Assembly: GCA_903813345.2 (NCBI GenBank)
Contig: CAIIXF020000001.1
Span: forward strand, 21,266,001-21,330,000
Direction: 5' to 3'
DNA length: 64,000 nucleotides
Source of the DNA: Owenia fusiformis
Lineage: Eukaryota
The notes beneath the pieces are model-generated. The model was not told the origin of the DNA. It was given only the letters and a program-made list of their open reading frames with translations, and searched no databases. The position numbers and the translations under genes are program-made. Positions within the stretch are counted from its first letter, which is position 1, and every line of letters begins with the position of its first letter. Positions 3,079 to 59,500 of the stretch are shown in pieces.

Positions 3079-3433
3079 CTGTTCTGATGTGGAAGTCAGC
3101 ATTGTCAACTGTTGTTCTTTGATGTTCACGTCCCAAATATGGTCCATTTAACTCACAAACTTTGGTATTTTTCTCTCCATTAATCTTGCGTAGGTTGTAT
3201 GATGTGCATTTCTCTGGTAAAGCAGAACAGCTTGCAGCACATGCAATATTTGTCAAAACTTTCAAAGACCTCATAGGGTTGCTCAGTCTCTCTGCATATG
3301 GGACTTTAATATATGCCTCATTCGTAATTTGATGTTTAGAAAGCGATATTCCAATAAGTGTTGTTTCGGAATACACTAAAACAACCTGTAGGGCTATAAC
3401 TATTATTGTGACGGTCTCTAAAGATACTTGCAT
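3079..3433 (-). CDS. First coding exon of secreted PAN/Apple-domain protein (copy 1); downstream exons not found in window
   Basis: Signal peptide MQVSLETVTIIVIALQVVLVYS; PAN-type Cys pattern CAASC-x5-CTSYN...CEL; ends at ACAG|GTACC phase-1 donor (3078). Confidence 0.65.
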
Positions 3434-6400
3434 TGTCTCACTTTAGAATAAATACATCAAGTTAGAAAGTCAATGTTTATCCCAGTCCTGTCATATGAAG
3501 AATGCTTGACAAGTGAGCTGCCTGGTTTTCTCATTAAAAATATATGCATTCAATATTTGTTAACATTAAAATTGTGCGAGTGGTTTACCAATTACATTGT
3601 ACTTTTAATTAACCAATCAAAGTTCCTTATAGATTAGTTTTTATTATCCCAATGAATGAAGTTCGGAAGGGATATAGTGAAGCCCTCCGTTCATCTGTCA
3701 GTCCATCAGTCAGTCTGTCAATCTGTCTGTCAGTAAGATAACTCAAATACTAGAGGACGGATTTTCTTCATATGTGGTGGAAAGATGTATATTGGTAAAT
3801 AGTTTTATGCAAAAAAGTAATAAATATTATTGTCTGAAATTTTAGTGTATATTCACAACATCCATCTTTTTCACATATACTAGTTTTCCATGTTTGTCAG
3901 ACTCAGATCCCCAGGGGCCTTATTTTGGGGTTCATATTACATTGTGACATTTATTGTGACATTCATGAATATAGTGTTCCTTGGGATTTGCTACTCCGTG
4001 GAGTTGCTGATTTTTAGTTTACTTTGAAACGGATATGTATACAATGTAATAACATTGCAATGGTTGATAAGTTAAGTATGTTCCCTATCATCTGATAACC
4101 TGATCTTCCCGGAAAATATATCTGGCATTAGTACATTTGGAGGTTAACACTAGTGTTTGATTTTAGATCGTGATAGGACTTAAAAACTTTTGGACCAATT
4201 TTGAGGAAAATAAGGCACAATCATCATCAATCACGTATTATGTCACTAAAGAAGCTACTCTTATACTTAAAATTGAAGTTAATAACAAAAGATGGGGCTT
4301 CTTATTTACCATTTCAATGAGGATAACGTAATATTGAAATAGCAATTTACGTGATTTTTGAATGTGCATCAAGTACCTATTCACAGTTGCCATAACAACC
4401 ATATTTTAAACATGTGTTGCTCATAAATGTTTGACTCTTTCAAATATTTGTTGGTATTCCTCTTACTAAATTTCTGCCAAGTCTCATGACATGACTGCAA
4501 ATAATTTACAAGGTAGAAGGTCACCTGCAAAATTTATTGATCGCCCCTTGTAATTTAAGTGAATTAATGTTCATACAGACCTCATAAATTAATCTATATT
4601 AAGCTATATTGTTAATCACATGACAGCTCTTGAGCAGTAACAATGCAGGTCATATTGCATTAATGGAAAGATGTTTATTTATTGTTCAAGTTTTCACACC
4701 TTGGTCATTGCATTGTTAATACCTCAATGCATTCATTCTGTAAATAAAATACATGAATTTCATTTTCATTTGTAAACAAAAGTTTTATTGGATATAATTC
4801 TGTCTAGGGTTACAATTTCTTCTTTTCTCAAAAGATTTTGTGTATATCAGATATTGCCATTAGTGCTGCTATATGAAGATTCATTGACAACGAGTTCTTC
4901 ATCTTCAAAACTATATTATTATTTGTCATGTTTCAAAAGGGAAGAATTTTACTTCTTCTGAGAAGTGTTAACATCAAGATAGGATGGAGGTTACAACTAA
5001 AATAGAAAGCTAAATTAATTCATATTTCAAACGTTGTATTTATACAGTAGTATAACTACCGCATGTCTATATTTGGCCCCATAATAATTTTCTTGTCTCT
5101 TAGCATCCAAGTATGTCAAACCTCATGGATATGTGATTATAAAAACTCTGTGGATTGATGCGGGCAAATCTGGCTAGCACAGGTGGCTGAAGCATGTTAG
5201 TAACTTTGCTGCTTCGGTCTGCATTCCCTTGTAAAATCTGAAAAAAGAAAATCATGTTGTGAAAATTTACATTGAGAATGATTATACAAAATTTGAGCTT
5301 TTTGAGCTTTTGACAAATGTAGGACATTACGATCGTATGTACAAATGTTTTATTACCGATCCATAGTGTTCCAGATTGCTGTCAGTTTTGCCATAGAAAA
5401 ATTTGTATGATTTCACCCATTGGCTATATGAATCTCTTCCCTGAGTGATCACTCCCGTCACTAACATAACTTCACCAAGGTCTGCTTGAATCCATGTCTG
5501 CGTATCATATCTATCTGCTGACCAGGCTCCTTGCATTAATCCTCTGGAAGTCAGCATTGTCAACTGTTGTTCTTTGATGTTCACGTCCCAAATATGGTCC
5601 ATTTAACTCACAAACTTTGGTATTTTTCTCTCCATTAATCTTGCGTAGGTTGTATGATGTGCATTTCTCTGGTAAAGCAGAACAGCTAGTAGCACAGGCA
5701 ATATTTGTCAAAACTTTCAAAGACCTTAGAGGGTTGCTCAGTCTCTCTGCATAAGGGACTTTAATGTATGCCTCATTCGTAATTTGATGTTTAGAAAGCG
5801 ATATTCCAATAAGTGTTGTTTCGGAATACACTAAAACAACCTGTAGAAATATTATTGTGACGGTCTCTAAAGATACTTGCATTGTCTTACTTAAGAATAA
5901 ATGCATAAAGTTAGAAAGTCAATGTTTATCCCAGTCCTGTCACATGAAGAATTCTTATCATTCAAGTGAGCTGCCTTGTTTTCTAATTATGCATTCAATA
6001 TTAGTTAACATTAAGATTGTGTGAGTGGTTTACCAATTACATTGTACTCTTAATTAACCAATTAAAGTTCCTTATAGATTAGTTTTTATTATCCCAATGA
6101 ATGAAGTTCGTTAGGGATATAGTGAAGCCCTCCGTCCATCAGTCTGTCAATCTGTCTGTCCATAAGATAATAATAGTGGACAGATTTTCTTCATATGTGG
6201 TGGAAAGATGTATATTGCTGTTTTATGCAAAAAACAAAGTAATAAAAAATATAATAAGTGTAGATTGCAAATATTGTATCATTTTTCTGATTCTGGCCTC
6301 GTAAATTCAAAATGGCTATCTAATGAGGAATTACGCAATAATTTTATGATCTCTTCAAAATATGGCAAGATTATTCTCAAATTGAAGGAATTTTAGAGTT

Positions 6401-19388: not shown

Positions 19389-20840
19389 CTAATAGACATA
19401 AGGAAGAATTTTGTATGGTACCTTTTGGCGATATTGTTCCCAGTATTGCTTATACTTGTTATGACACTTTGTGTCATCCCGAAATGATCTGTGAGAAAGA
19501 AGAATCAAGAGCCAAATAAAATAGACATAAGGCATGACATTCTCAAATAAACCTGGGACACTCCATGCAAAGGCAAGCAACCACTCAGCATTGTAATGGA
19601 AATGACGTGATATACCCCAGAATCCACTCGCGAGTAAAATACTCTCTTTGACGTCCCCATTTTCAATGCGATATTTAGCTCTGATGATGTCAGGTTTTTT
19701 GCCCCATATAAGACAATTTCCATTAGAGTTACGAACTTGTTGCTTTTGCATATCAGCCCAGAAGTTGACAATCGTACTCAAGATTCCCACAGTGAGAAGC
19801 AATGCGGTTAAACCGACACCAAGCTGAACTGGGTGGTTTACCATATAGAGACTTACCGATCCATATAAACCAGCGATATAAACAAGACATCCCCAGCAAA
19901 TATAGAACCCTGCCCGATCCATCATTATATCAATGGTACCCATGTAACCTGCCTCCCACCAGAAGAACTTAGTGAAATAAAACATCTGGAGGAATGTACA
20001 GACAAACATACTGTCTACAAATCCATGGAGTTCATAGCTCTTCAGGGCAAAGATACAGACCAATAATGGCCAAACAGTCATTCCAAATCTGCAGTTGGTG
20101 AATACTTTCACATCGACTCCAAATATTCTTGGGTAGAGCTCAGTTCCCCAGTAGTAATCAAACAGTGGATTCCCAGTCGTACTGTTATCCTCTGTTGAAG
20201 GCATGTATTTTCCTTTGAAGTACAAAACCAAGCAGATTAGGAGACTAAAAATGTTCAAAGCCCCTAGAATCTCACCGAAGCGATCATAGACAATTGTAGG
20301 CGACATTCCATGTTGTTTCAGATAGTAGGTCAATCCAGCGAATGTTACCATGGTGATGACATAGCAACTGAATCCATTGTCCTTATAGACGGGTACATTT
20401 CCTTTAGGGGTTACAGGCCCTTCCGCCCTGGGCCCAGGTACCATGATTTGTAGAAGTAAAGCAAAGAGCGCATAGCCGTATATCAAGCACAGAGTGAATG
20501 GGTTGATAATGCTTATCGAGCTCCAAATACTAACTAAAGTTGTCACGACACCATCCTTGACGAAATGATCGTTGTACAGCTTCATGAAACTGCCATCACA
20601 TTTTGTGCAAGTGAACCACAAAAGGATGATAAAATTTGGGGAACAGGTGATCAAAAATAATGGCGTCACAATCTGATAGAGAACATACTCTGGCCAAGAC
20701 AGAATATGAGTTGTTGGCTCAGCAATGATTGTATTCTTAGCTACGCCATTGGTACATGTAGCTCCGGAGTCACCATTCCCATTTGCAACCTTTGCCGATT
20801 TATCATCACTGCTACCGACAGATCTGCTTCTTAACTGCAT
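19389..20840 (-). CDS. DHCR7: 7-dehydrocholesterol (sterol delta-7) reductase, ERG4/ERG24 family, DWF5-like; intronless CDS
   Basis: Multi-TM ORF with DYYWGTELYPRI, KVFTNCRFGM, KFFWWEAGY, DRAGFYICWGCLV, LLASGFWGISRH, HRSFRDDTKC..KY..YW..Y...VPYKILP; first ATG after acceptor at 20872 is 20840; probable non-coding exon 1 ending at donor 22367. Confidence 0.92.
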   Translation of the reverse strand: MQLRSRSVGSSDDKSAKVANGNGDSGATCTNGVAKNTIIAEPTTHILSWPEYVLYQIVTPLFLITCSPNFIILLWFTCTKCDGSFMKLYNDHFVKDGVVTTLVSIWSSISIINPFTLCLIYGYALFALLLQIMVPGPRAEGPVTPKGNVPVYKDNGFSCYVITMVTFAGLTYYLKQHGMSPTIVYDRFGEILGALNIFSLLICLVLYFKGKYMPSTEDNSTTGNPLFDYYWGTELYPRIFGVDVKVFTNCRFGMTVWPLLVCIFALKSYELHGFVDSMFVCTFLQMFYFTKFFWWEAGYMGTIDIMMDRAGFYICWGCLVYIAGLYGSVSLYMVNHPVQLGVGLTALLLTVGILSTIVNFWADMQKQQVRNSNGNCLIWGKKPDIIRAKYRIENGDVKESILLASGFWGISRHFHYNAEWLLAFAWSVPGLFENVMPYVYFIWLLILLSHRSFRDDTKCHNKYKQYWEQYRQKVPYKILPYVY

Positions 20841-21236
20841 TATCAGTTGTTGGACTTGGACAGCAACCAACCTGTAACAATAATAAACTTGAGTAAAATG
20901 TAAAATTGCAAAGGGCAATTCTGAGGACCCTGGAGAGGTATATTGAAGGGACTAATCTGAATTCTAATCTGAAGATAGGGAATCAGTTCCAAACATGAAA
21001 TATAGATACCCTATAGTAGACAAGAAAATTTAACAACTTTTATAAAAAGAATCAGGGCATTAACATGCACAAGGTCACGCATTACATGCACAAGGTCACC
21101 ACCTACCATTTGTTATGGATGAAAACACATGTAAATAATATCAAGTGTAACATTACAAACTGTACAAATACATGTACAAGCATAACTGAAATGAGGTAAC
21201 TTAAATCTGGTTTCTTTTGTAGGCTAACACCACTCT

Positions 21237-22632: not shown

Positions 22633-25600
22633 ATGCTCAGTAGCATCTGGGGATTCGTAAAGCGCCACAGACGCAAATTTTTGTTCACCGGGGCCGTTGT
22701 AGGAGGTAGACTAATTATTTAGATGAATTTGTAAATCTTTGCTCCCAAGCCAAACTCAATTCGAAAGTTTACTGGATTTACTGATGAATGGTGTTGAACA
22801 CCCCCAGTAAGCAATAATAGAAACGCCTCCACTGTCTACCCTTTGCATTCGTTTGACTTCACTTCTTAAAAGAGAGCTTCGTCTTCACTCTTTCAAACTA
22901 AAATAAACCTGTGAACTCACCGCGCCAATCAGTGTTCGTCGGCCAAATTTGACCGACGTTATATATATGGTCATTCCTTCTGACGTCATCGTTGAGCCCG
23001 GAATTGACCAATGACATGCTCATATTTAATTAGAATGTATTTGGCGTGTGTTTCTTCAAGCTCGGTGAATGGTGGAAGAAAGGTCAGCGCATAGGTCAGA
23101 AGTGATTTATTACTCAAACTGTCACCGGTACCCGTAATATGGTCTCTACTAGGCAGAGTGTAGTTTAACTAGACTCTGCACGCAGGGTACCACTGTCTCA
23201 TTTTCAATTGACTATCACTTCGTGTTGAGCTAAATAAATGAAGTTCTACAGGTGGGATTGGCTAATCTAATGTGCTGTCGCGATGAATCGATACATTGCG
23301 ATCTTCTAACCTCATCAGTGTCAAGATTTAGGGACAATAAAAAGGCATTTTAAAGAAACGTTTCTGGTTTTTCGACTGAACCAATGACCCCAATTTTTAC
23401 TTTGTTTTCGCACACTGTTATGGGCCAGATGGGGATTGAATATTGAACAATGTCAAGCCCGTGTAAAGCATAATGAAACAAGCAAGATACAGAAATAACA
23501 TGTAGTTAGGTCTAATATGGAATCAAACCTAAGACTCTCTCAGTCCACTCAGTCTCAGTTCCAACATCTGATGCGATATTGAGCTGCCAAAGTTTAAGCT
23601 ATGATGTCTGCACTTTAGTATCAATTTTTGTGCTATTAGGTGATTTGCTTTTTGGGGTTTGTTTTGAGACAAAAATCTCAACCCCAATAAATATTTATAC
23701 AATTTATCTTCATTTTCAGGTGTTGTTCTCCTTGGAAAATATGCAAGGTCAAAGATCCAGCAACTTCAAGAGAAAGAGGCAGCAGACTGCCTAGCACATG
23801 CAAGGTATGATATGGGAGAAAGGTAACAATAGTTTTGCATAGCACATGCAAGGTATGATATGGGGGAAGGTAACAATACTTTTGCATAGCTCATGCAAGG
23901 TATGATATGGGGATAGGTAACAATACTTTTGCATAGCTCATGCAAGATATGCTATGGGGGAAAGGTAACAATACTTTTGCATAGCTCATGCAAGGTATGA
24001 TATGGGGGAAAGGTAACAATACTTTTCCATAGTTCATGCAAGGTATGATATGGGGGAAAGGTAACAATACTTTTGCATAGTTCATGCAAGGTATGATATG
24101 GGGGAAAGGTAACAATACTTTTGCATGTACATGTAGCTCATGCAAGGTATGATATGGGAGAAAGGTAACAATACTTTTGCATAGCTCATGCAAGGTATGA
24201 TATGGGGGAAGGTAACAATACTTTTGCATACCTCATGCAAGGTATGATATGGGGGAAAGGTAACAATACTTTTGCATGTACATGTAGCTCATGCAAGGTA
24301 TGATATGGGGGAAAGGTAACAATACTTTTGCATACCTCATGCAAGGTATGATATGGGGGAAAGGTAACAATACTTTTGCATACTTCATGCAAGGTATGAT
24401 ATGGGGGAAAGGTAACAATACTTTTGCATACCTCATGCAAGGTATGATATGGGGGAAAGGTAACAATACTTTGCATAGCTCATGCAAGGTATGATATGGG
24501 GGGAAGTTAGTCTGAGAGCAATGTTTGCATTTTATCTAATGCAACAGGGAGTCACAAAACAAGCCTTTTTCTCACCTGCCATATGCATCTCTAAGCCCAT
24601 TAGTATTAGGAAAATGAAACATCTATTTTTTATAATTTATTTTTACAGGCGTCAGCATCATTTTGACAGTAATCAAAGGACATGCAATATGACAGTGTTG
24701 TCCATGATGCCTAACCTAAGGGAGACCTTAATGAAAGCTCTCGACTCTGAGCATCTCACTGAACAGTTGAAAGCAAGGTTAGTTTATCAACTTCTACCTG
24801 GGGTGGAGTTAACAAAACGAAAGATGTATAGTTTGATATTCGGTTTGATTGATTGGAGTACAAGAATGTAGATTATTATTTTAATGAAGTCTGAGAACTG
24901 TTCTGTCTGTTGCCTGTATACATTACAAGGAAGATAAATGTGTATTTAGTTTTGTATATATACATATATGTTTTGTAGGCCAGCAAATAAGCTTGAAATA
25001 TGGGAGGACTTAAAGATTACAAGTAAGATTTTAGTGTTCAATCATTTGAACCATGTGAATATAGAATCATTATCACACTGATTTCCCAACTGATTTTCTC
25101 CTAATGATGGTCAAATTAACCATGGAAATGACATAACTATGTTTAACTTATGTTGTTGTAAGAATAAAATTGCTTTTACAATACTACAGTTAAAATTAAA
25201 GTAGGCAGTTGAAACACTTAAGTTCTGTTAAAATTCAATAAGAGTGAATATGAAGTCACTGGGTTCATGTGAAGTGTTGCCCTTATGCATGTTATGGAGG
25301 TGTTGACTTGACAGGTTTTAAACTCTATATTGTTTTAGGCTTTTCACGAACCCTGGTCTCTATGTACAGTGTATGTATGGTTGTGGTCTACCTTAGGGTA
25401 CAGTTAAACATCATAGGTGGATACATGTACTTAGACAACCTGCTGAACAGAAATGGCACAGTAAGTTAATATTTTTAGACATGAAATTTGCATCTCTGCT
25501 ATTGCATTGCAATTCTGCAAAATCCTATATCTTAAAAGTTAGTCTGATGATTGAATAGATTGATTTAAATAACTGGATTAACTGTGTTTAGGGATGAGGT

Positions 25601-34602: not shown

Positions 34603-35784
34603 TATGTTTACATCAGTTAAAACATCACATCACTGTTGGATATTCAGAAACTAAATGGTGGAAATATTTGTAGTGAATCACACAAGTGTAAACCACGAGG
34701 ACCATAATTCTACAAATTCATTAAAATGTGTGGATAACACTTCTTTTGGACTGAGTATTTTTACTGTGAGCACATAATGACATGTTATAAATATCTAAGC
34801 CGTTTGGGTTAGATTGATTCAATAATCAATTTTATAATGCCTATAAAGATGTTTCAGGTTTGCCATTTGAGCAATATCTTTTACAAATGCAGGTGAATTA
34901 TTTGCATCTCGCTTTCTTGTTTCTGTGGAATATATTTTATGCTCTCTTTATACAATGGGTATCCAAATTAGAAAGAAAACCAGAAATTAACCACGATGAT
35001 GCCATATAACTTCTGCAAGACTTAAGACTAAGTTACCTTTATGACACCCAAAAAAACTTAAGACATTCATCTAAAACATGTGAGAATGACAGTCCATTAA
35101 TGCAAGTGATAACTGAGATATAGCTTATTTCAAGGGTTCATTTTTTGGACCACCATGTATAAAATTTGAACCAAATCCATCAAAAGATTCGACTTATCAA
35201 AGATCACGTTTTTTACGAAAAATGGCTGCCTCTTTGAATTGAGCAGGCATTTTGGAAACTTCTCAAGCAGAGGTTCTATACCCATAAGACATACGCCTAT
35301 AAAATTTGAATAAAATCCGCTAACCGGTATTTGAGTTATCGCACGGACAAATGGACGGACAGACCAACGGATGGCTATATCCCCCGAACTTTATTGGGTG
35401 GGATAATTATGAAAACAAGGAATGCATGAATCGTTTCACTGAGTCATGTGAATAAATATTTTGAAGTTTATATATTGATTATAATTCATTATACTGAAAT
35501 CTTTTATTGGGTCTTCTTATGTAGGCTAATAGAGAAATTAAACTTTAATATCTGACTATGTTATACAATCAACTTAGAATTGGTTTTTGCTATGAGTATC
35601 GTAAAAATAATCTAAATGAAAACATGAGTACTCATACACCGTGTCATACCTATGTGAAAAGAAGAAATGAACTATATTGGCACATTACAATTAAAATGAT
35701 TATAAAATGAAAAATAAGTCCTCTATGATATTTCTCTTGGTTTCACCTTTTTTGAAGATGTTTGTGTTTTTTGATAGTCTTGCT

Positions 35785-38700
35785 TTATTGTTGTATGTTG
35801 TTGTTATCATTTTGATCCAAGTGACTGTAAAAACGGTTCTGTGACATTTTGCTCCTTCGGCTTCTTTGAGAGCTCATACTGATTCTCCTTTCAACGTCTT
35901 CCTTGGAATTTTTTTTACCTTTAAGGATAAATACAATGATAGCAACAAGGACAACCAGGACTCCTACACTAACACCGACAGCTATCACCTTAGAAGAGGC
36001 ATCCCCAACTGGATCTGACTTCATTGGAGGGACATCCCGCTGTGCACTCGTGCTAGGGGCGGACAATGTCTCTTCCACAAGTGTTTTAGACACACACCTA
36101 TAGCCAAGGACACTGTTTGGATCTGCTTTACATGTTTGTTCAATATCAGGGCATGGATTTGTTGAGCATGGATCAAAGCTTGTTTCACACATGTCTCCTT
36201 TAAATGATGGCGGGCAGCTACATTTAAGTCTGTTATTGTCAACAGAACATGTGCCACCATTTCTACAGAAGTTGTCGGAACATGTCAGCACTGTGGTAGG
36301 TGCCAAAGTTGTTGTTGGTGATGGTGATGTCATTGCCGTTGTTGGTGGTGGTGTTGTTGTTGTTGTGGTAGTGGTGGTGGTGGTGGTGGTAGTAGTGGTA
36401 GTAGGGGGAGTAGTGGTTGTTGTTTCTTGGTCGTGTCGTGTGCCATAATTTGGCCAAACCTCTTTAAATATTTTGAGGATTTTCAACTTACAGCCTTCTT
36501 CATCTTGTGATGGCTTGCAGCCATTATCTAAGAAGGACATTTTCATGGCATATCTTCGATCCCTCCAATTTTTTTTTGTAGAAAGGGTTTCCATTGTCCT
36601 TTTAAGCAGTGAAATACATTCCCCTGATTTGTTCGGAAGCGTCGGATTTGCAGAACAATACCTTTCGAGACGCTTTACCAGATCAGTTTCAGCCATCTCC
36701 CAATCTAAAGGTATTTCCACGATGATAACATCGACAGGTCTTTCACATAGTACACCTTCAAATGCGGGCAGGCAGAAACATTTAATTCCAGCAGTGTTAA
36801 TAGAGCACGTGCCGCCATTTCTACATGTTGTGGCTGTACACATTGGTGGTTGAGTATTGGCACTGGCTGGTCGTTCTGCTGGTAGACTACGGCCATATGA
36901 GCGCCAAAGTTTTTTAAATATTTTAAGAATGTCCCACTTGCAGCCTGCTTCATCTGCTGATGCTTTGCAACCTCTATTGAAAAAGGATGCTTTGATTGCA
37001 TTCCTACGATCCTCCAGCCTTCTGTGTTCAGAGGCACTTTTTATTGTTTCCTTAAGTAGTGGCATACAGTCCCCTGAATTGTTTGGAAGAATCGGTTTTG
37101 TAGCACAATACTGATCAAGAAGTTGAATCAATTTTGCTTCATCATCGTCCCAAGCAACTGGCATCTGAAAATTTGCTTGTTTACCATAATCATTAAATAC
37201 TTTGAGGCATGCATCTCTCTCTCTCGCACCTGGTCCATCTGGTTTTGAAAAATGTGCAATCGTTTTGAAGCAGTCATGCTTAATCATTGGTTGAAAAACA
37301 AAGATTGTTTGAAGCTGATGATCTTTGAATTTTATTGCAAATTCTGCCCCTTTAGTAATCCAGCTCTCACACTTTGCCATGAAAAGTTGAACGTTATTTG
37401 CGTATTTTGGCTTTTCATGACAATATTTTCTCATAACTTGCATTCCTGTTACTATTCTTCTATTGGCCGCTGCGAAATTAGCTGTTTCACATTCCTTTCC
37501 TTCATATGGTCTCGGGCAGAAGCATTTAGCTCCATCAGTGTCAAGAGTGCATGTGCCACCATTTTTGCAGTAGTTAGTACAAGATGGCGCTGGGGTAGGG
37601 GCACCTGGTCGCAATTCGGATAGTTCTATTTCAGGCTCAAAACGCTTCCAAACTTTTCTCATTATTTTGTAGACATCCCAGATACATGCTGCTTTTTCTG
37701 TGGCATCTGGTAATGGCGTACAACCTCTATTGACGAAGACATCTTTGAATTGACCCCTACGATGCTCCAAATTTGTTCTTTTGTTAGCTTCTTTCATTGC
37801 ATGCTTAAGTAGTGAAATGCAACCACCCGCTCTATTCGCAAGTATCGGGTTTGAGGAACAATATTTGCTGAACCCTATAATCACATTCTTTTCATCCTCA
37901 GACCAACGTACAATCTCTGTATTTCGTTTTCTAGCAGCATCTCCAAAGAAGGCCAAACAGTTATCTTTTTGTGGTTTTAAATACTTACTCAAACATTCCT
38001 TCATTATCATTTGATATAACAAAAAGCCACGCTTAATTTGTGAATCTGTGAACTTTGCAGCTAGCCTCTTTCCTAGCCTTATTTGATTTTTGCAATTATG
38101 TTTTTTGATGCGATTATTTCTCCATGTCGTTGTACAATACCTTCCCATATCTGCCACTAGAGAATTATAAGAAGCATCTCGTTTGACACGTTTCGGAGAC
38201 CTCGTAATTTTTGTGAACATAGTCTCGAGAACGCGGTTTGTTGAGTAGTCCTTATGTGGGTGAGGTAGATCATTGCAATTTATAGTCTCCTTATTCTTCG
38301 TTGTTATGGCTACAAAAAAACATCATTGTGTTATCAGAAACAAGTCAAATTCTTTACTTCAGAGAATATTTTTAATTTAAAAAACATCATTGTGTTATCA
38401 GAAACAAGTCAAATTCTTTACTTCAGAGAATATTTTTAATTATCATTGTGTTACCTTATGTGTCCATAACCATTTCATTTGTGTATAATTTCAATCATTG
38501 ATTAATATCATCCACTTCAACTTATAAAGTGAACTTTTCAAAATGTATCAGCCATCATTTAAACTATTTAGATATCATACATACACACAACAGTGCGTAT
38601 AAAAAACGCAAAAAGATTTTTCTCGGAAAAGCACAAAACCAGTGATAACAGCATTGATTTCATCCAATGCACCATAAAGCCATGAGTCTCCTCTTTACAG

Positions 38701-40684
38701 TGATATATCATTCATTGATATTTGGTCATGGTTGGGCGAGTAATCATTCCATTTGCAAAGTGGGCCAAAATTAGCTTGGGACCAAGTTACAAACATCGCA
38801 AAAGCAATATTGGAAGAAAACGTAAAACCAGTGCTGACTGCATCATTTTCATTCAATGTACCAAAAAGCGAAACTCCTCTTTGCAATGGAATATCATCCA
38901 TTCACAGGGAGTCATCACTGGCCGAATAATCATTAATTTTGCAAAGTGGGGCAAAATTCAGCTCGGACCCAAGTTTTAAACACTGCAAAAGTCAGTACAA
39001 GGGGAATAGGGGCTGTTGGAAGAAGATGTGACAGGTACGGCATTGACAGTAAAGTGTTCAAACTCATACTCTTGCAAGAATACATCCTATACCCCTCCAA
39101 ATTGCCAGTACTTCCTTGCACATTAAGATGCGCTCATCTGTCCTCGTCATGCATGGTTCAGCTCTGAGTCATCTGTGGGTTAAAGCAGAGAAAAGCAGCC
39201 CATGGGCAATTCTTTCTCGAGGTTTTGCAATATCTGTCGGAGGAATTGTGAGCACAGATGATCCTGAGATAGCTCCAAAAGAAAAAGTCTCAACAATTCA
39301 AGTCAGGGGAACTTACATTGGCACTTAACCGATTTTAACCCACTGTGCAAATGGAAAGATTTCTCACCCAACCATTACCACATGTGAATGAATGACATAT
39401 CATTGCAAAGAGGAGAGACGTGGCTTTTTGATACATTAAATGAAATTGATGCTAGTTTTGTGATTTTACGAGATAACTACTTGTTGCGTTTTTTTTTGAT
39501 ACACCCTGCATATATGACACTATTTATGCCTACATACGAGAGGTTATCATAAAGTTCTGATAATATCTCTCTAATTTCACTATTTTTTGATATATCACCG
39601 GGCGTGTCCGATCACCGGGCGTGTATATTGAAGCCTTACGACAAATTCCATTATTTGATTAAGATGACATGGCCAAGCAGAGGCGGTCCATGTGCCCAAC
39701 AAATATCAACCACTAATAATGCAACACATAAGATATGGGAGTTTATATACTCACATGCATCATACACGAATTTTCCACGGAGTTGTCCTTGTTTTCCATC
39801 TCTTGTCAACCGGAGACACTGATATCCTTTCTCTTTACTGAAAAACAAAAATAAGTTGATCCTATAACTAGTCGATGGATAGGGTATAAGGCAACTGTGA
39901 TACATAAAACTGAAATCTCAAAGATGTCGGGGGAGATGTGACCCCACTGATATGTATTTCCTGCTCCAATATTCCAGGGGAAACTACTAAAAACTTATTG
40001 TACTTATTACAAATAATATTCTTATAAATCTCACTACTGCTTACTGGTCGTTAGAATAAACCATATCCCTTACCGATTCAATTTTTGCCCAAAAACAACT
40101 GTCATTGACTTCTTTGTGCAGCTTATTTGTTCAAATGGTAGCTTCTTGTTCGTTATCCCTAAAGTAAACAGGTCATTTAATCACAAATCTTTTTTTCTTC
40201 TTTTCCCAACCTTTATTTTACTAAACAGGACGTTGCGGATCCTGTCTGGATCCTTTTCAACTATTTTATGATAACACCTTGAACGAACTGAAATCAATCT
40301 TTTCAAGCACTTTTCAATTTATCGTTCTTCATGGAACCATTGGTTTCAACAGTATTGAATGCCCATGATGGAACTTATTCAAGGCAGTGTTATAACTCTA
40401 CAATGGTCATAGCCCAACTTACAAAATGCATAGGGGCCCAGTTTTGCAACGTCGTGTACACGAGGAGTTGGTCCAAACGCAATGATTCCGTCTTTTGCGA
40501 TGTTAAGTTCTCGTCCACGTATAAGGGATATACGAAATCGTCCTAAGAAGTCCTTTGGGGGTTCGGTACATTTCGAACCGAGTGTGCTACCTGCATACAC
40601 AGCGATGAGCATGAATGCAGCGATGAGAGCTTGCTGCACCAAGCGTTCGCCTGAAATTATTAATGCATACTGTATTAAGCCCAT
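35785..40684 (-). CDS. Uncharacterised type I membrane protein: 4-Cys helical repeats + EGF repeats + Thr-rich stalk (~980 aa; start uncertain)
   Basis: Exons 40684(or acceptor 40650)-40423, 40158-40074, 39837-39755, 38309-35785 join in frame via GT-AG (phases 1,2,1); signal-like LIAAFMLIAVYAG, RVKR furin site, 3 full EGF (CxNGGTC) + 1 partial, poly-Thr, TM VIAVGVSVGVLVVLVAIIVFIL, basic tail. Confidence 0.8.
38314..38452. repeat. ~65 bp tandem duplication at the acceptor end of the intron
   Basis: AAAAAACATCATTGTGTTATCAGAAACAAGTCAAATTCTTTACTTCAGAGAATATTTTTAATT x2 plus partial. Confidence 0.8.
38588..39510. mobile_element. Degenerate Tc1/mariner-like MITE
   Basis: Imperfect ~130 bp inverted arms (TCTCCTCTTTACAGTGATATATCATTCA / TGAATGACATATCATTGCAAAGAGGAGA), right end ACACCCTG. 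Confidence 0.55.
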
Positions 40685-50500: not shown

Positions 50501-53500
50501 TACAGACTTAAATATTATCAAAAATGTGATTTTGATGACAAGAAGTTAAATTGATGCAAAAATTAAGAAATTGGTACAATGGTGTAAAGCCCAAATATGG
50601 ACCACTGGATCAGTTTAGATTAATGTTTTCATGTGTCCAAAAATTGTTGCTATATGGATGGACAGGCAGATGTACAGATGGGTGGCCAAGTTCATTAGCT
50701 TACCACATGAGCCAAAAATGGTGAAATAAATCTATTAAACTTCTTGATGGTGACATGAAAACTATTGTTACATAGACAATTATCCAATAGAAACCTTATT
50801 GTACCTGATAAGTGCTTGTTTCTTCAAGAAGTCCATGAGTCTTGGAAGTATATCCTTCACTATTCTTCTTCTCATGAAGTCACCACTTATCTCTGTCATT
50901 ATTTGTAGCATCTTTAATGCCTGGAACATAGACATACAGTAAAACCTGTTCTAAGTGAAACATCTCATGAAATGGAACAACTCGGAAGTAGTTTTTAAAA
51001 AATCCCGTTTTTTAAACCCATTGAATTAAAGTACAATTGAAATAGTGTTTTAAACATAAAAGAAACAATTTTATTTAATAATGAATGTATTTGGACATGT
51101 CATCTAATCAGTAATGTGGCAACCATTTCATTCCAATGAATGTGGTAGCTATTTAATAAACAATATCTAAATGTTTTGTGACATTTTTTGGCCCCCATGT
51201 GACTTTTGAACTGACAGCTTAAGAGATATCACAATGTTAATAATGAAACTTACTCTGACAGTAACTAAAGTTTCATCATCCTTGAATCTTTGTAGAATAG
51301 CTGGCCACAACTTGTGCACCATTGGAAGGAGATCATCTGTAATGGAACATTAAATAATAAAATGCAACACAAAATTAGATAAACATTCTAATATTGCATA
51401 TTCTGTTTGACCATTTATAGTAATATAAAAAATGAGGTACAAAAATTCTTGGATTGGAATAGCCCTAAATATATTTATTTGTGCAGGGGTTTACCTTTGT
51501 GATTTGCCATAGCCAAACATCCATTCTCTATAACATCTAGAACCTGTAGACGCAGCCTTGGATTCCCAGTTGATAAAATGTGTATACACCTTGTGAGCAC
51601 CTAGTGGACAGAGAACAGTGTCATGTATGATCAGCAATGGATATACATACATATACATATATACACGTACATATTCATATACAGTATATAAATGAACATA
51701 TTCATGATGCATTTTCAGAAGTTGAAGAATGTTATATCACCAAAATCTAATGCTCCTCCTCCTTACAGGGAATTTTTTAGCTTTAGCTTTATAAATGCAT
51801 ATAAATTTTATTGACTTCTAGTACGTCATGTGCAACTAGAAAAACAGCAACTCCACGGAGTAGCAAATCCCACCGAACAGCCACCTTGAAAATTTCTTCT
51901 CAAGCAGAGCTCCTTTATCTATAGGCATCAGTATATAAAATTTGAAGTAAATCCGTCCAATGGTATTTGAGTTATCAAAGATTACCTTTTTTATGAAAAA
52001 TGGCAGCCATTTTGAAATTCAGCTGACCCCTTTGAAATTTCTTCTGAAGCAGATCTCCTATTTCCCTAAACATCAGGATATAAAATTGGAACCAAATCCA
52101 TTCACTGGTATTTTAGTTATCAATGATTATGTTTTTTTAACGAAAAATGGCGGCCATTTTGAAATTTAGCTGCCATCTTGAAAATCCATTCTCAAACAGA
52201 GCTCCTATGTCCCTAGGCATCAGCATGTAAAATTTGAACCAAATCCATTCAATAGTATTTGAGTTATCAAAGATAAAAAATTTTACAAAAAATGGCCGCC
52301 ATTTTGAAATATGGTTGCATTCTTGAAAATGTCTTCTTGAGCAAGGTTCCTTTGTAGTTTGTACCCAGGCAACAGCATATAAAATTTGATCCAAATCTAT
52401 TCAATGATATTTGAGTTATCAAAGATAACGTTTTTTTTATGAAAAATGGCCGCCATTTTTAAATATGGTGGCCATCTTGAAAATGTCTTCTTCAGCAGGG
52501 CTCCTTTGTACCCGGACAACAGCATATAAAATTTGAACCAAATCCATCTACAAGTATTTGAGTAATCAAAGATTATATTTTTTCCGAAAAATGGCCGCCA
52601 TTTTGAATTTAGCAGCCATATTGAAAATTCCTTCTCGAGCAGAGGTCCTACACCCATAAGGCATACGCCTATAAAATTTGAATGAAATCCGTTAACGGGT
52701 ATTTGAGTTATTGCCCGGACACACGAACGGACGAACGGACGGACGGACGGACGGCTTTTCTATATCCCCCTCGAACTTCGTTCGGTGGGATAAAAATGCA
52801 TCTATTGAACTAGATAATATAACACTGTGTTGGAAGAATACATTTAAAGTGTGATGGATTCAGAAGGTTAATTCTTCAAAGAGTTAATTTGGTTGAAAAT
52901 GTTAAAAACTAACTTCCGGACCCAAAACTGAACATTTTTGGAAGACATTGAATGTATTCTCTTAACAGTTCTTGCTTCAACACATTTTCATTGATATTTG
53001 GAGTCACAGTTTATCTGGTCAAAATTTAATTCAGAAGCAATCTGAAATAAAATGGAGTCTATAATTGAAATAAACAAATGCCAAAAACTTGAGATTCAAA
53101 AATATAAAATCTATGAGTTAAACCTCTAAAACAGCTTTGATATGTTGTGGTACTTTCTTCTCAGTGTCACCCTCTGTAGGATCCATTTCTTCTTCTACAT
53201 TATCCTTATCATCATCACCAACATCATCATCTCCCATCACAGTCTCATCAGTGAAATCACCTTCAGCTATCCGTTTTTGGGTTTTGTACTCCAATAAAAA
53301 TGTTTTCACATCTTCTACACTAAGATGCTTTACAGTCCTCGATGTATCTGAGATTCTACCATGCTCACTTGAATTCTGAAATACAATTTTTGATTCGAAT
53401 TTCAAGCCAAAATACACTCCATGTACATGCTGACTATGACTATAGACCATTCTATTGGAGTTGAATATGTCTCATCCTGAGTTAAAGAGATTTCTATCCA

Positions 53501-56500
53501 ACACATACTCACTTTGTCTTACAGTGAATATCAATTGTTATAATCTATAGGCCTATCCAAAACTCATGAAAAATCCATCATCTCAAACTTACCGTTTGGG
53601 GAGGATACCATCTCTGTACTGCACATACAAGGGAATGTAGCACCTTCATAAAGATCTCACATTCATCTTGATGATTGTCATCTAGTGACTGTAAGATCTG
53701 CAATCAAATACAAGATACAAATGTACACTTTACAGTGTGTATATTAATAGAGGATATCATGTGATATACTGTACTCCCAGTTAATTTCGCGAGTTTTAAT
53801 TTTGCGAATTTTGAGAAATCGCATTTACGCAGCTATTAAATTTCGCGGTTTTCACAAGTTCAAATTTCTGAATCCTCAAGTTTTGTAAACTTTGTTACAC
53901 AGTAGTTACATCCAACCCAGTATAATATTTGGATAAAATTTATAATTACTAGATCTTGGAGAATGGTACGCTGCACACCAACCTCTATTACATCGTCATT
54001 TTTGGTAAAATTGATCCAATAAGCCAAGGAGACATCGTTGCTATATCCCATTTATCACCCATGTTTTGCAAATGTTTTACACAAAACGAAATGCATCGGA
54101 GTCCCATGTAATAACAAATCCCCGGAGATTTGATTAGTGAATTTCGTGATGTTTATTTTTCGTGATTTTTCCACAATCGCGAAGAGCCCGAAACTAAATT
54201 GCACGCGAAAATACCGGGAGTACAGTATTCATGATATGATTTTTATCTATGAATGGATATATTATGAGCCATATCTCATGCTTTAAAAGCATTATTAGAT
54301 GGTTGTGAATATTTGACAAAATATATAGAATAATCTGCCTAAGAGCCAAAGGGCAGAAACAGTATATTTAAGGATCATCTAAATTGTGTATGCTGAAACA
54401 AAACGTGTTAAGTATATTCGCATCAAATTCACCAAGTACATGTATGGAGGAACATGAATAAATTTAATACCTTAGAATAATTGTGACAATTGTGTTTTAT
54501 ATAATCAAGTATATTTTCTTCATCCATATGATCATTTCATGAATTACACTGAAGCATGGCCTCTTGAGAAAGAAATATTTTTACCGGCATAGTTCTAAGC
54601 AACCTAATAACATGTACTTCATTTCTATACATTCATATAAATGTACATGCAAAATTGAGAGGATGATAATTGGTTGTAAAATCTTTTAATCCTCTTTTTG
54701 ATCCTTTTAATGCAGCAGGTTGCGGTTTTGTCAATGAATAGTATTTTTATATTATCACAGTTCATTGACTGATCATACCAATGTTCATATTTAGAAATCC
54801 AACAGAACTTTATTGTATATTGTGCAGAAGAAATATAAGTCGCAATCAGGCAGAAAAATAAAAAGTAAAGGTAACTGTAATCACTTAATACCCCCTAAAT
54901 GGAGACAGGGGGTCACATCCAAATCTAAGGAAGGTAAAGCATTTGCGTAAAAATCCTGTACAAGGTTTGTGTCCTCCAAATCTCACTATACATGGGTGGA
55001 GTACAACCCAGATCCAGATGTATGTAATGGTAATAGTATTGATGCAATCACTGAATGGTGTTGTTCATGCCCAGTTGGGAGTAGGGTTGTAGGTTCATGT
55101 GCACACATTGCATGTGCTATTTGGTTCCTAGGCAGTGGAAGGCATGACATTTAAAATTCAAAAACTATGGAAATCTGGAATCTGGGGGGGGCCCTAAAAC
55201 CAAAATTTAGCCCAAATATTGAAAATTTTAGGCCCATTTTTTAGATAATTTGGCCTAAAATTAAAAATAAGGCCTTAAAAGGCTCATTTATTTCCAAAAG
55301 GTTTTTGTGTTTTTCAATGTTGCCCCTTGTTCTTTCTCACTGTGATTTAAATTAACATATTTCTCTTTTCTTACACATTTTTGTAAACTGTTTGTGGACA
55401 ATTGATCTTAATGAAATATAAAGAAGATCTTAGTCTGATATGCATTTTTGACTTCTTATACTTTATGTGTGTTTCCAATTATTCTAAATATATTGGGGCC
55501 AATATAGGGTCTAGGTAAAAATAATCTGTCAAAATGAATTTTAGAACCCGTATAATCTGAATATCTCTGGGACTGGCCAAATGTATGCAGGTGTTCACAT
55601 TTCAAGATTTCTTATCATTTGAGTCAATTAGAGATAAAACATAACTGCAGGTCATATTAACCATGTTTAACTCAGTTACAGTACATTTTAACTTTGAATA
55701 GTTACACCATTTGATATGAAATGCTATTAGCTATTGACAAGTCGAACACTGCATGCAAAAATGTTCCTTTTCAAGTTTTCAAGTCTGAACTTTGACTCTG
55801 CTGCCATGCCAACTTTCAAAATTGCTTTTGAATTAATATGACATATTTGTTTTTTGTTCAAAGTTATTGTACTTTGGTTAAAGCTACTATGTCAACTTGA
55901 CCTTAAACTAGATATATCATATAGAAAGATGAGGTCGAACTGCCATTAGAACTGTATTTGGATAGACGCAAAAAAAGCAGGCCGAAAAAGAGTTCAGCAG
56001 AGAAGAGAATGTCGAGTCTCAAGGCAACATTTGCAGTTGTTACAGGTTCAAGCCAAGGACTTGGTAAGGAAATTGCCCTACAGTTTGCAAAGGTCTGCGA
56101 CGGAGAAACATCTGTACTGGTTTTACATGGAAGAAATGAAGAACGTTTGGCAGCTGTTCATGCTGACATAAAAGCAGTAAATCCACTATTAACTGTGTGT
56201 GCTGTTGTCGCTGATCTGGTTGAACATGAAAGCTACAAACGCCTTGTTGAGATATTTGATGAATTTGGGAAGCAGTCATTTGAGAGAGCGTTCCTGGTAC
56301 ATAATGCCGGAGACCATATGGGATTCGTAAAAAACAAAGCCCATGAGATTGATGATCATCAAGCCATACAAAGATTCATGAGTATGCACCTAACATCAAT
56401 GGTTGTACTAACATCAAATTTCATGAAGAAAATTACAAGCCATGCTCTGATAAAGACCAAACAGTATGTGGTCAATGTAAGTTCAATGTCTGCTTTGGTA

Positions 56501-59500
56501 CCAATGAAAACATTGGCACTTTACTGCTCAGCAAAGGCAGCAAGAGAAATGTTCATGCAGGTGCTAGCTTTGGAGGACCCTGAGGTTAGAGCATTGAACT
56601 TTGACCCTGCTATCATGCCAACAGAGATGTTGATAAATCACATTAGAGATGCGTATGATCGCGACTTTGCTAGGAAGTTGACAAAAATGGGCAAAGATGG
56701 AGAAATCTTTTCAGCAGTGAAAATTGCAGAAGAGTTTATAAAGGTGGTTATTCTTGATGAATGGAAAAGTGGTGAACATGTGGCACCGTGTAAATTTAAG
56801 GTGTGAGGACACGTGAGAACAATACAAGAACACTATGAAAACATTTTGATAACAATAGGAAAACAATGTGAGAACATATTGAAACATTATGAGACCAGTT
56901 AGAATACATAACGAGAAAAACACTGAAACATTTTGAGAACAGGAGACATTACACGAACAATTAGAAAACATTTACAAGAAAAACACTAAAATACTATAAA
57001 CCCAATGGGAAACAAGAACAATTGGAAAATATTGAGATTGAATTTAAACAAGGCACAGACGTGAACAATATCGTACCTAAAACACAGCAGTGTGACAGTG
57101 AAGAATTTAGGACGGAAAATCCAAAATGGCCACCTTAAAATTTACCCAGAATGCCCAAAAACTAATCAGTTCTTAACTTTGATACGTAGAAACATCCCTG
57201 AAAATTTCAGATGAATCCATCAAATGGTTTGGCTGGAAACCTGTAGACAAGTCTTGAAAGGGAAGATTTTAGGACGGAAAATCCAAAATGGCCACCTTAA
57301 AATTAACCCAGAATGCCAAAAAACTAATCAGTTGTTAACTTTAATATGTAGAAACATCCCTGTAAATTTCAAATGAATCCGTCAAATGGTTTGGCTGGAA
57401 ACCTGTAGACAAGTCTTGAAAGTGAAGATTTTAGGACGGAAAATCCAAAATGGCCACCTTAAATTTTACCCAGAATGCCAAAAAACTAATCAGTTCTTAA
57501 CTTTGAAGCCCGCCCGTCAAGCTGACGACAATATCGTACCTTTATTAGGTACGATAAAAAAACATTATGAGAACAATACTAAATATAAAGGATTTTATAA
57601 TAAAAACATTATGAGAACAATACTAAATATAAAGGATTTTATAATAAATATGTAAGACACAGTGTAAAATATAAAAAATTGTGAGTGAAATATATCCCAT
57701 TTGTAAATGAATCTTTGTTGTTTGTTGGTTAATAACTGAAAAGCTAAAGCTCACCTCTCTTATGGTGTCATCAATGTAGTGAATGATTTCCTTCCCCGTG
57801 TACTTCAGTAGGACCTTCAGAACCAGAGGGGTATTTGGGTTTCTGCCTAAATGTCGAAGCCTCAGAGAGATTGACGACACAATGAAATCTGCATTCTTGC
57901 ACAGTAAGTCATTTATAGAACTGGAACATACATACATACATAACTTACATACATGTACATGTATATCATAAACTGATGTTTTTGATGATCCAGGAATTTA
58001 AGTATTTATGGCTATTATTTACACAGAAATCTGAAATGCAAATAAACCATTGCACCTATATCTATAATAGGGGAATGTTTTCCGAAAATTTCCATCAAAT
58101 ATAGATGGCATGATGGCACGGGTAACTATCAGGGGGAGGGGGAATAATGAGAAATTTCAGAGGAGGGTATGCACCCCTTAAGCAGGTATACACCAATGGG
58201 GCAAAATCCCACTTGCCCCATCGAGTCCCATCTTGCACCATCGAATCCCAACTTGCCCAATCGAATCCCACTAAGTCCCATGGGACCTTGATGACTTTGC
58301 CCCATCATGCTCTATGGAGTCCCAGCAAATCCCACCTTGCCCCATTGGTGTATGTTGGGCTTCACACAACACATCATATGATCGAAAATCCCACGATGCC
58401 CAATGGAAAGAATGAACATGTTCATTCTGGATGGGGCAAGATGGGACTCCGTGGGATTTTGCCCCATCTTGCCCCATCGAATCTCACTGAGTCCCATTTG
58501 GGACCTCATGCCACGGACTCCATGGGGCAAAATCCCAAGAAGTCCCACAAGGTCCCACGCAATGTTAAGTCTATGGAGGTCCCAACTTGCCCCATTGGTG
58601 TATACTGGGCTTTAACAAAGTCATCTAGTACCTGTATTTGCCATGCTTTGTGATGTCACAGAGTGTAATATAAGCAGTATCACTCAGTAATGCAGATTCT
58701 TCTCCTAGTTTCTCTAATGTAGGATACAAGATATATTGCAACATCACTTCAAAGTCCCCACCAAGCACCTGAATCATAAACACATATTGTTTACTTACTT
58801 TTACAAAGTATATACTTCTACAAAATATTTGAGGCTTCTGATTATAATCTGTCTTTGTTAAATAAATAAATACACATAGTTTTGATTTCATACTATAATG
58901 CAAAAATCAACATTACAGGGTGGGCCAAAAAAAACCAATACCCAACTTTAAATTAGAATGAAAATAGCTATGTTCAATATGATACATTGATTTATATATC
59001 ATTGTACAGGTAATCCATTTTCGAACAATTTGGTATATAACACTATGTCATGAAATCAATATTAAAGATTTATCATGCTTATTTGGGAGGCCGGGTCGGT
59101 ATTTAAGGTATCCAGATTTTAGGGAGAAAATAGTAAATCTGCGGAATAATGTTAATTTTTTATTTAAAGAATATCATTTTGTTAGGTGAATACATGCTTG
59201 TATATTTGTATATTGTGTGACTAAATTTATTGTTTATGAATTTTAGTGTTGTTTATTATCAATAAGTACTCAAAGGGGGTCTGTTAAAAGACATTAAACG
59301 TATATGTGACGAGGATTTTATTTTCCAACAAGACATTGCCTCGTACCGTAGATTTCAGGAGACATTGGCATTCCTTTGCAGACAAGGTGTCAATTTGATT
59401 GATCTGATGCTTGGCCACCCAACAGCCCCGATGCTACATGTAATGTGTTTGATTACCATACATGGAGCCTTCTCAAGGAAATTGTACAATCAAAAGCATC

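Follow-up and report, generated by a model that had tools for sequence, protein, structure and literature searches.

Which kind of protein is encoded by a long open frame in the genome of Owenia fusiformis, a reference species for early-branching annelids, and does the frame belong to an intact gene? The frame (35785-38322, reverse strand, 845 codons) lies in a stretch of 64 kb, here called the window, in surroundings of about 35-42% GC, and its translation alternates EGF domains with repeated four-cysteine modules. Invertebrate genomes commonly encode orphan surface proteins; the points addressed here are the gene model, the nature of the modules and the taxonomic range of the family.

Gene model

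The coding region occupies 35785..40684 on the reverse strand and comprises four exons joined across introns that are all GT-AG (CDS 2955 nt, 984 codons plus stop); after splicing the frame is continuous over the 984 codons, with a single, terminal stop. Exon 1 (40423..40684) supplies the ATG, a signal-like peptide (approximately residues 1-36) whose hydrophobic stretch reads ALIAAFMLIAVYA and is followed by GSTLG, and the start of an N-terminal domain; it aligns to the N-terminus of CAH1802477.1 (A0A8J1TNT8), an uncharacterised O. fusiformis protein of 638 aa. The middle of the N-terminal domain is encoded by exon 2 (40074..40158) and a further part by exon 3 (39755..39837), which match the same protein in tblastn at 60% identity over 30 aa and 62.5% identity over 24 aa, respectively. 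Exon 4 (35785..38309), delimited by the open frame and the splice model, holds the end of this domain, all of the repeats, the stalk, the transmembrane segment, the tail and the stop codon. With CAH1802477.1 as the tblastn query all four exons were recovered independently, and the spliced product aligned to it with 46% identity over 373 residues (E 9e-98), in an alignment that spans all three junctions. The gene structure and repeat architecture are well supported. A sequence-only reading of this DNA had joined four exons in frame to add a signal-like peptide and an N-terminal region, and had placed every repeat within one exon of about 2.5 kb (38309-35785); both proposals are borne out by these splice sites, the open codons and the cross-junction alignment.

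Domain architecture

Module residue numbers below refer to the translation of the 845-codon exon 4 frame, and all of the features lie on the reverse strand. The N-terminal domain of about 145 residues has four Cys, all kept in CAH1802477.1, and is separated from the first module by the motif RVKR (45-48; 38179..38190), a putative proprotein-convertase-like site of the R-X-K/R-R type in a PKRVxR context and in linker position. Modules A1 (48-134; 37921..38181), with four Cys and four predicted helices, and B1 (135-232; 37627..37920) come next, both delimited by BLASTP, shuffled-sequence comparison and AlphaFold, and are followed by EGF1 (248-278; 37489..37581). The pattern recurs with A2 (284-386; 37165..37473), B2 (387-480; 36883..37164) and EGF2 (495-526; 36745..36840), and then with B3 alone (536-628; 36439..36717), these three modules being delimited by BLASTP and shuffles. 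A Thr/Pro-rich run (633-680; 36283..36426), which coincides with a simple repeat that reads (TGG)n on the forward strand, leads to EGF3 (681-712; 36187..36282) and to a partial EGF (719-743; 36094..36168) that has four Cys (719, 724, 731, 743) and lacks the six-Cys pattern. The transmembrane segment (779-800; 35923..35988) has 22 residues, a GRAVY of 3.27 and zero charged residues, and the putative cytoplasmic tail (801-845; 35788..35922) is basic (pI 10.6) and Ser-rich, with RRIS, SKMSQ and YSHL motifs. This order, the furin-like site included, is almost to the letter the one proposed by the sequence-only reading.

Pfam families found on the exon 4 translation were of EGF type only: EGF_2 (PF07974) scored 34.2 bits against a cut-off of 22.1 and EGF (PF00008) 23.7 against 21.5, with three stretches each, coinciding with the three canonical six-Cys patterns of EGF1, EGF2 and EGF3. 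The POFUT1 acceptor consensus is C2-X4-(S/T)-C3, and all three complete EGFs carry the corresponding O-fucose acceptor motif C-x4-[ST]-C (CKNGGTC in EGF1, CRNGGTC in EGF2 and EGF3), and the C-x-x-G-G-T-C consensus reported earlier is present in each, which predicts the modification. In their C-x3-4-C-x5-C-x8-C-x-C-x8-C spacing and in this motif the EGFs resemble those of Notch/Delta/Crumbs/fibropellin-type proteins; however, there are three complete EGFs only and no long array, the similarity is limited to the EGFs, and Pfam detected none of the DSL, LNR, laminin G or SRCR partner domains on the exon 4 translation.

Membrane-tethered mucins of the MUC13/MUC17 type have juxtamembrane EGF domains, and the window protein is like them in its type I topology, in a Thr/Pro-rich stalk for O-glycosylation, in EGFs adjoining the membrane and in a cytoplasmic tail that is short and bears motifs of phosphorylation type. 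In contrast to them, it lacks a SEA domain (no such family at E≤1 in Pfam on the whole exon 4 translation), and its ectodomain consists mostly of folded helical modules and not of mucin repeats. What had been called a mucin stalk is retained as a Thr/Pro stalk preceding the transmembrane segment and basic tail; at about 48 residues it is stalk-like, far shorter than mucin repeat arrays, and probably O-glycosylated.

Two sets of four-cysteine modules

The three B modules are clearly related to one another (BLASTP E 6e-27 for B1/B2, 1e-20 for B1/B3 and 8e-35 for B2/B3), as are A1 and A2 (E 2e-9). Smith-Waterman comparisons gave z values of 13-43, with scores reached by none of 500 shuffles, for every B/B pair (3/3) and every A/A pair (3/3, including the A module of CAH1802477.1). 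The earlier claims that the B modules align, that the A modules share Cys spacing and a KFxDxQ motif, and that the modules are basic all stood: KFxDxQ occurs in both A modules of the window protein (CAH1802477.1 reads KFADPE), and the pI is 8.7-10.2 in five of five modules. The spacing between the second and third Cys is 33 in six of seven modules and 32 in the seventh, and every B module has a conserved RR or KRK in helix 3. Values of dN/dS between internal repeats ranged from 0.40 to 0.87 (seven of seven pairs, the highest for B1/B3), soft figures given dS values of 0.5-2.0.

Kinship between A and B was also considered, and homology is not demonstrable by sequence: seven of nine A/B pairs fell inside the shuffle range, the other two were marginal (z 3.5-4.0, 500 shuffles), and a profile-profile comparison of A with B in hhalign gave P 0.013. 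A relationship between the two sets would rest on shared Cys spacing and predicted topology.

Predicted fold and search for known families

AlphaFold predicted A1-B1 as eight helices, four per module, with a mean pLDDT of 85.2 and a pTM of 0.76; the model was built on a three-row alignment of the protein's own repeats, and two of five models exceeded pLDDT 80. The A-B part of CAH1802477.1 was likewise predicted as helical blocks (pLDDT 70-93), and in the predicted models the four Cys of each module cluster near one end of the bundle.

The sequence-only reading had described disulfide-tied helical bundles of no known family, and had proposed profile searches of the modules and structure prediction with Foldseek as checks. 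At E≤10 neither A1B1 nor A2B2 matched any Pfam family, and B3 matched just a sub-threshold Trm5_N (E 0.046, 13.9 bits against a cut-off of 22.7). The best PDB sequence profile match of the modules was an unrelated Raf domain at E 0.61, and an ESM Atlas search with B2 gave no usable match. Foldseek queries with the didomain and tridomain models, against the PDB and BFVD (a viral library), yielded no match at E≤0.001 (best E 0.45, 0.12 and 0.29; TM ≤0.34). The predicted helices and the lack of a family match in these searches agree with the earlier description; its disulfides are putative.

Saposin-like, Izumo-type and cytokine-like domains are examples of described disulfide-bonded helical domains, and the A/B module could be a very divergent member of such a group. 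Bundles of this small size leave little trace in sequence or in 3Di and easily escape detection, and a fold search of two kinds of model against two libraries may have passed over a remote structural relative; against this stand the empty Pfam result for both A-B pairs, the Raf domain as the best PDB match and the low TM scores, and we consider such an origin unlikely. A more novel possibility, which we regard as rather doubtful, is that the A/B unit of about 90 residues represents a fold family new among extracellular domains, with four helices in a bundle and two disulfides stapling one end of it. This unit would have been born in the oweniid lineage of early-branching annelids, internal duplication would have multiplied it along with captured EGFs, and its fast-evolving surface might serve to recognise a lineage-specific partner (candidates are gametes, cues for larval settlement, polyanions of tube or mucus, and microbes).

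For the N-terminal domain AlphaFold confidence was low (pLDDT 27-50), and the Foldseek rows are for that reason uninformative on it. DUF7042, DUF7043 and DUF7044 were considered as candidates and set aside: ESM Atlas feature scores of the N-terminal domain of CAH1802477.1 to clusters carrying these DUFs were 0.80-0.87, at best 0.85-0.87, below the 0.9 level, the structural rows for that domain reached TM ≤0.50 with a poor model (pLDDT 0.52), and Pfam at E≤10 matched none of the three in CAH1802477.1 or in the exon 1 translation. They are a lead only, and a literature search by name found no paper on them.

A paralogue on another contig

In an exhaustive HMMER scan of 1,835,955,588 representatives a single relative was found at E≤0.001, CAH1802477.1 (E 1e-40). 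Its gene lies on a 36.7-Mb contig and the window gene on one of 62.2 Mb, both chromosome-sized; the window gene is a paralogue of CAH1802477.1 on a different chromosome-sized contig. A tblastn search with CAH1802477.1 found no paralogue of the gene elsewhere within the 64-kb window. A word-indexed homologue search with the exon gave four matches among 4834 candidates (464-1479 aa band), all of them Notch/Delta/Crumbs/fibropellin-type proteins matched through their EGF domains over 6-9% of the query, and a similar search with residues 25-365 of CAH1802477.1 returned only itself among 3103 candidates (350-1117 aa band). As far as these databases show, the family appears lineage-restricted, with one relative in the same species. 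In the literature, a search by accession found no paper with CAH1802477.1 or A0A8J1TNT8, and a narrow search on Owenia EGF-like or mucin lineage-specific proteins had no mention of Owenia among the matches listed.

The two proteins share a signal-like peptide, the four-Cys N-terminal domain, a PKRVxR site, an A and a B module, and in their C-terminal part a Pro/Thr/Ala-rich stalk, a transmembrane segment and a tail rich in Ser that carries S[KR][IM]SQ and YxxPhi motifs. They differ in that CAH1802477.1 is without an EGF domain and has one A-B pair only, has a longer tail with seven S[KR][IM]SQ motifs and YNQV (one and YSHL in the window protein), and reads RVER, an R-X-X-R site only, where the window protein has RVKR.

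The protein might be a precursor and not a receptor. Cleavage by a convertase and a sheddase would then set free soluble factors (a signal, a pheromone or a component of the matrix), namely the N-terminal domain, the helical modules or both, with the transmembrane segment serving for delivery only. The PKRVxR site kept in both paralogues would fit such processing, as would further internal R-x-[KR]-R or R-x-x-R motifs (RDRR at 587, RNNR at 68, RLER at 551) and the basic RR or KRK of the B modules. However, the internal basic pairs sit in predicted helices of a compact bundle, a poor convertase substrate, and the EGF spacers, the stalk and the conserved tail with its sorting-type motifs suggest that the membrane form matters; we regard a precursor role as improbable.

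Absence from protein collections

Neither the exon homologue search nor the HMMER scan of 1.84 billion representatives recovered the product of the window gene from the protein collections, and the two neighbouring ORFs, as delimited, have no exact entry in the protein collection. Over 98% of its length the DHCR7 ORF next to the gene matches an annotated O. fusiformis protein on the 62.2-Mb contig at 100% identity, which places the window in this species. Absence from read-derived proteins is silent on expression, because the cluster of DHCR7, a housekeeping gene, likewise consists of one member, which comes from NCBI/UniRef only. We think it very unlikely that the window gene is a silent or decaying copy of a CAH1802477.1-type gene, still open by chance, as its absence while DHCR7 is annotated and the rather high dN/dS of the repeats might suggest: the four exons, with canonical splice sites, keep 984 codons open in a genome of 35% GC, no Cys has been lost from the modules (20), the EGFs (18) or the N-terminal domain (four), and the internal repeats have diverged as far as the paralogues (33-48% identity), which implies that the frame has been open for a long time.

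In the published Owenia annotation, 5,779 gene models overlapping repeats were dropped (PMC9977687). The absence of an intact gene from the collections could follow from this filter, given the simple repeat inside the gene and a 64-bp tandem duplication adjoining it.

Discussion

We consider it probable, from sequence and predicted structure, that the locus is a real, intact four-exon gene encoding a type I membrane glycoprotein of 984 residues, one of a two-gene family so far known from O. fusiformis only, and that this lineage-restricted protein presents basic helical bundles for an anionic ligand at the surface. The stalk and EGF spacers would hold the disulfide-stapled bundles away from the membrane, where these might bind a ligand that is polyanionic or otherwise specific to the lineage (candidates are sulfated glycans, matrix, mucus and the surface of another cell). 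Cleavage by a convertase may detach the A/B array from the N-terminal domain, although CAH1802477.1 reads RVER and is short of a full R-X-K/R-R site. The tail, Ser-rich and with a YxxPhi motif, would connect the protein with phosphorylation and with sorting in the endocytic pathway.

A role in adhesion, gamete recognition or immunity, as put forward in the sequence-only reading, is a guess, and neither gamete recognition nor immunity is favoured over other surface roles. Abalone lysin/sp18 and Izumo-type proteins are likewise fast-evolving extracellular bundles of helices, small and either basic or disulfide-bonded, and this resemblance is only a functional lead: Pfam, PDB sequence and Foldseek searches gave no match in support of a relationship with lysin/sp18 or Izumo, and lysin is soluble and without a Cys framework.

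The biological weight of the finding is modest for now; it concerns an orphan domain and not a new kind of system. As an apparently unannotated gene of 984 codons, the locus suggests that repeat-overlap filtering can lose real repeat-containing surface proteins. Should the module prove to be a new fold, the known extracellular building blocks would gain a compact helical domain, basic and stapled by disulfides, and the gene would be a case in which a taxonomically restricted domain and ancient EGF modules were combined by internal duplication into a new surface protein.

Gene structure and module order

The window gene lies at 35785-40684 on the minus strand, where 845 codons run uninterrupted (35785-38322) and the GC content, about 35% across the window, rises to 42% over the long fourth exon. 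Its upstream exons were traced using P0006, another Owenia fusiformis protein, giving a splice model with exon 1 at 40684-40423, exon 2 at 40158-40074, exon 3 at 39837-39755 and exon 4 at 38309-35785, all on the minus strand. The three introns carry the donor sites GTAAGT, GTAAGG and GTGAGT and end in AG, the spliced exons form a 2955-nt frame of 984 residues whose one stop is terminal, and the product aligns with P0006 unbroken at every junction (46% identity over 373 residues, E 9e-98); the coordinates and four exons proposed in the sequence-only reading are correct. A tblastn search with P0006 matched all four exons and no other site in the window, and AATAAA or ATTAAA occurs 238-392 nt 3' of the stop. 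Residues 1-36 appear signal-like, with a hydrophobic stretch at the end followed by small residues when inspected by eye. Just 5' of exon 4, at 38315-38441, a 64-bp unit is duplicated exactly in tandem (2.0 copies, 100% match). The duplication stops six bases short of the acceptor, and the duplicated unit includes the polypyrimidine tract.

Residue numbers below refer to P0001, the translation of the long open frame, which has 44 regularly patterned Cys. Modules of two sequence types, A and B, were delimited among six-Cys EGF domains: A1 (48-134), B1 (135-232), EGF1 (248-278), A2 (284-386), B2 (387-480), EGF2 (495-526) and B3 (536-628), followed by a Thr/Pro run (633-680), EGF3 (681-712), a partial EGF with four Cys (719-743), an uncharged, hydrophobic transmembrane segment of 22 residues (779-800, GRAVY 3.27) and a basic tail (801-845, pI 10.6). 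This order is identical to the one read from the sequence beforehand, and the furin-like RVKR noted then is present at 45-48, in the linker joining the N-terminal domain to A1. Pfam recognised EGF_2 (34.2 bits, cut-off 22.1) and EGF (23.7 bits, cut-off 21.5) in the exon 4 translation and no families beyond the EGF type, with hEGF and Teneurin-EGF under their cut-offs. Each of the three complete EGFs has the motif C-x4-T-C spanning its second and third Cys, which matches the O-fucose acceptor consensus of the POFUT1 literature, as had been claimed for EGF1-3. The five A/B modules are basic (pI 8.7-10.2, 17-20 Lys+Arg each), as is the N-terminal domain (pI 10.0).

Relationship and history of the repeats

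The repeats seen at the outset hold up well against chance. BLASTP related B1 to B2 (6e-27), B1 to B3 (1e-20), B2 to B3 (8e-35) and A1 to A2 (2e-9), and when one member of each pair was shuffled 500 times, the scores of the three B/B and three A/A pairs (the P0006 A module included) were reached by 0/500 shuffles (z 13-43). Between A and B, seven of nine pairs scored inside the range of 500 shuffles; A2/B2 (z 3.5, matched by 5/500) and A2 with the B module of P0006 (z 4.0, matched by 2/500) were marginal. Over 49 columns, hhalign matched an A profile (3 rows) to a B profile (4 rows) at P 0.013, pairing the first two Cys of one with those of the other. Both types share the spacings 13-17 / 33 / 9-21 between their four Cys, the middle one being 33 in six modules of seven and 32 in the other, together with the topology predicted by AlphaFold2, and A and B are probably divergent versions of one unit.

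Identities among B modules are 48% for B2/B3, 45% for B2 and the P0006 module and 33-38% for the remaining pairs; A pairs are 29-35% and EGFs 47-54% identical. Since identities within the gene and to its paralogue are similar, the internal copies are of roughly the same age as the divergence from P0006. Either EGFs were gained and an A-B-EGF unit amplified in the window gene, or EGFs were lost from P0006. Nei-Gojobori dN/dS of the repeats is 0.40-0.87 in 7/7 pairs (dS 0.5-2.0), below one but soft, and is compatible with a fast-evolving surface on a fixed framework of Cys and core. That the gene is an unexpressed duplicate is less well supported than its reading as a surface protein.

Predicted fold and family searches

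AlphaFold2, given a 3-row alignment of A1B1, A2B2 and B3, returned five A1-B1 models with mean pLDDT 85.2, 83.5, 71.0, 70.3 and 67.5. The top model (pTM 0.76) has eight helices, four in each module. The first and third Cys of a module fall near the end of helix 1 and at the end of helix 3, the second and fourth near the beginnings of helices 2 and 4, positions that would place all four at one end of an up-down bundle. A and B were again helical in the prediction for P0006 28-363 (10-residue blocks at pLDDT 70-93). The structural interpretation suggested earlier, of basic and presumably disulfide-tied helical bundles, is supported.

The first reading could assign these modules to no known family, and our searches agree. 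At E<=10 Pfam gave zero families for A1B1, A2B2 and the exon 1 product, and the sub-threshold Trm5_N (E 0.046) and CP12 (E 0.054) alone for B3 and P0006, respectively. Against 177,635 distinct PDB sequences, a profile of A1B1, A2B2 and B3 reached at best E 0.61, to an unrelated Raf domain, and P0006 E 2.2. Foldseek found no matches at E<=0.001 for the A1-B1 model in PDB (best E 0.45, TM <=0.34 among the rows shown) or BFVD (best E 0.29), or for the P0006 28-363 model in PDB (best E 0.12); these queries were two- and three-domain models, and small helical bundles give little signal. The alternative that the module is a far-diverged version of some helical domain already on record has weaker support than a surface protein with an unassigned module.

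For the N-terminal domain of P0006, AlphaFold gave some strands at low confidence (blocks at pLDDT 27-50). A language-model search with P0006 28-180 placed clusters carrying Pfam DUF7042/7043/7044 nearest, at 0.80-0.87, where scores below 0.9 count as a lead only; the corresponding HMMs matched neither P0006 nor the exon 1 product at E<=10, and the literature searched contained no mention of these families.

A single relative and the genomic neighbourhood

An exhaustive HMMER search of 1,835,955,588 representative proteins with the A/B profile yielded one match at E<=0.001, P0006 (1e-40; CAH1802477.1 / A0A8J1TNT8), an uncharacterised 'unnamed protein product' of 638 residues from Owenia fusiformis that is the sole member of its 90% cluster and is carried by a 36.7-Mb contig. 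Word-indexed searches matched P0006 only to itself and P0001 to four EGF proteins (4/4 matches) covering 6-9% of the query. P0006 has a signal peptide, where the window protein has a signal-like one, and like it an N-terminal domain with four conserved Cys, A, B and a transmembrane segment, with PKRVER at the site of RVKR; unlike it, P0006 has no EGF and only one A and one B. It further contains a Pro/Thr/Ala-rich region, and its tail is long and rich in Ser.

A single-exon ORF of the ERG4/ERG24 family at 19389-20951 (-), taken as 19392-20840 (Pfam E 4.9e-62), matches P0007, the annotated 7-dehydrocholesterol reductase (DHCR7; 527 aa) of O. fusiformis, with 100% identity across 98% of the ORF, and runners-up reach 60-63%; this assigns the window to O. 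fusiformis. P0007 exceeds the Met-to-stop ORF by 44 residues. As DHCR7 lies on a 62.2-Mb contig and P0006 on the 36.7-Mb one, the window gene is a P0006 paralogue on another chromosome-sized contig. No entry for it was found in the protein collections searched, though the neighbouring DHCR7 gene is annotated. That read-derived proteins do not include it carries no information, since even the cluster of the housekeeping DHCR7 has one member (NCBI/UniRef only). According to the Owenia genome paper, overlap with repeats led to the removal of 5,779 gene models (PMC9977687); a (TGG)n repeat lies within the window gene (36343-36417) and the 64-bp tandem duplication beside its exon 4, and such filtering may have caused the missing annotation.

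Exon-sized ORFs for the TTI1 C-terminal TPR domain (53118-53471, -; E 1.4e-9) and Peroxin-3 (24479-24871, +; E 2.1e-7) place the gene among ordinary housekeeping genes. A single-exon short-chain dehydrogenase ORF (55925-56806, +; adh_short E 1.1e-24) is absent from the protein collection as an exact Met-to-stop sequence. Two near-identical, Cys-containing ORFs about 2.5 kb apart, 3056-3442 (-) and 5511-5918 (-), have a common stretch starting TMQVSLETVTII. They are reminiscent of PAN/apple modules but have no Pfam match at E<=0.01, and probably represent one unassigned exon duplicated in tandem. ORFs 35130-35390 (-) and 52397-52759 (-), with no Pfam family, have in common a stretch including RAITQIPV that is probably a dispersed repeat, one copy lying just past the 3' end of the window gene, and a minisatellite-like ORF at 23891-24232 (-) comprises repeated units close to a 16-residue sequence.

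Possible function

With a secretory-type N-terminus, one transmembrane segment and an ectodomain of predicted helical modules spaced by EGFs and a Thr/Pro stalk, the window protein would be a type I surface glycoprotein, in which stalk and EGF spacers hold out basic, disulfide-stapled bundles towards an anionic or lineage-specific ligand. Judging from its sequence, a convertase may cut at RVKR; a processed precursor releasing soluble helical factors is less well supported than the surface protein. Both cytoplasmic tails have a juxtamembrane [DE]DVE[KR], S[KR][IM]SQ (once in the window protein, seven times in P0006) and Y-x-x-hydrophobic (YSHL and YNQV, respectively), and basophilic kinases (RRIS) and endocytic adaptors could act on that of the window protein. 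Nothing in the present analysis discriminates between adhesion, gamete recognition, immunity and matrix/tube interaction. The familiar part of this surface protein is a single-pass glycoprotein with EGF and mucin elements; what is new is a domain absent from family libraries and known from two genes of one annelid.
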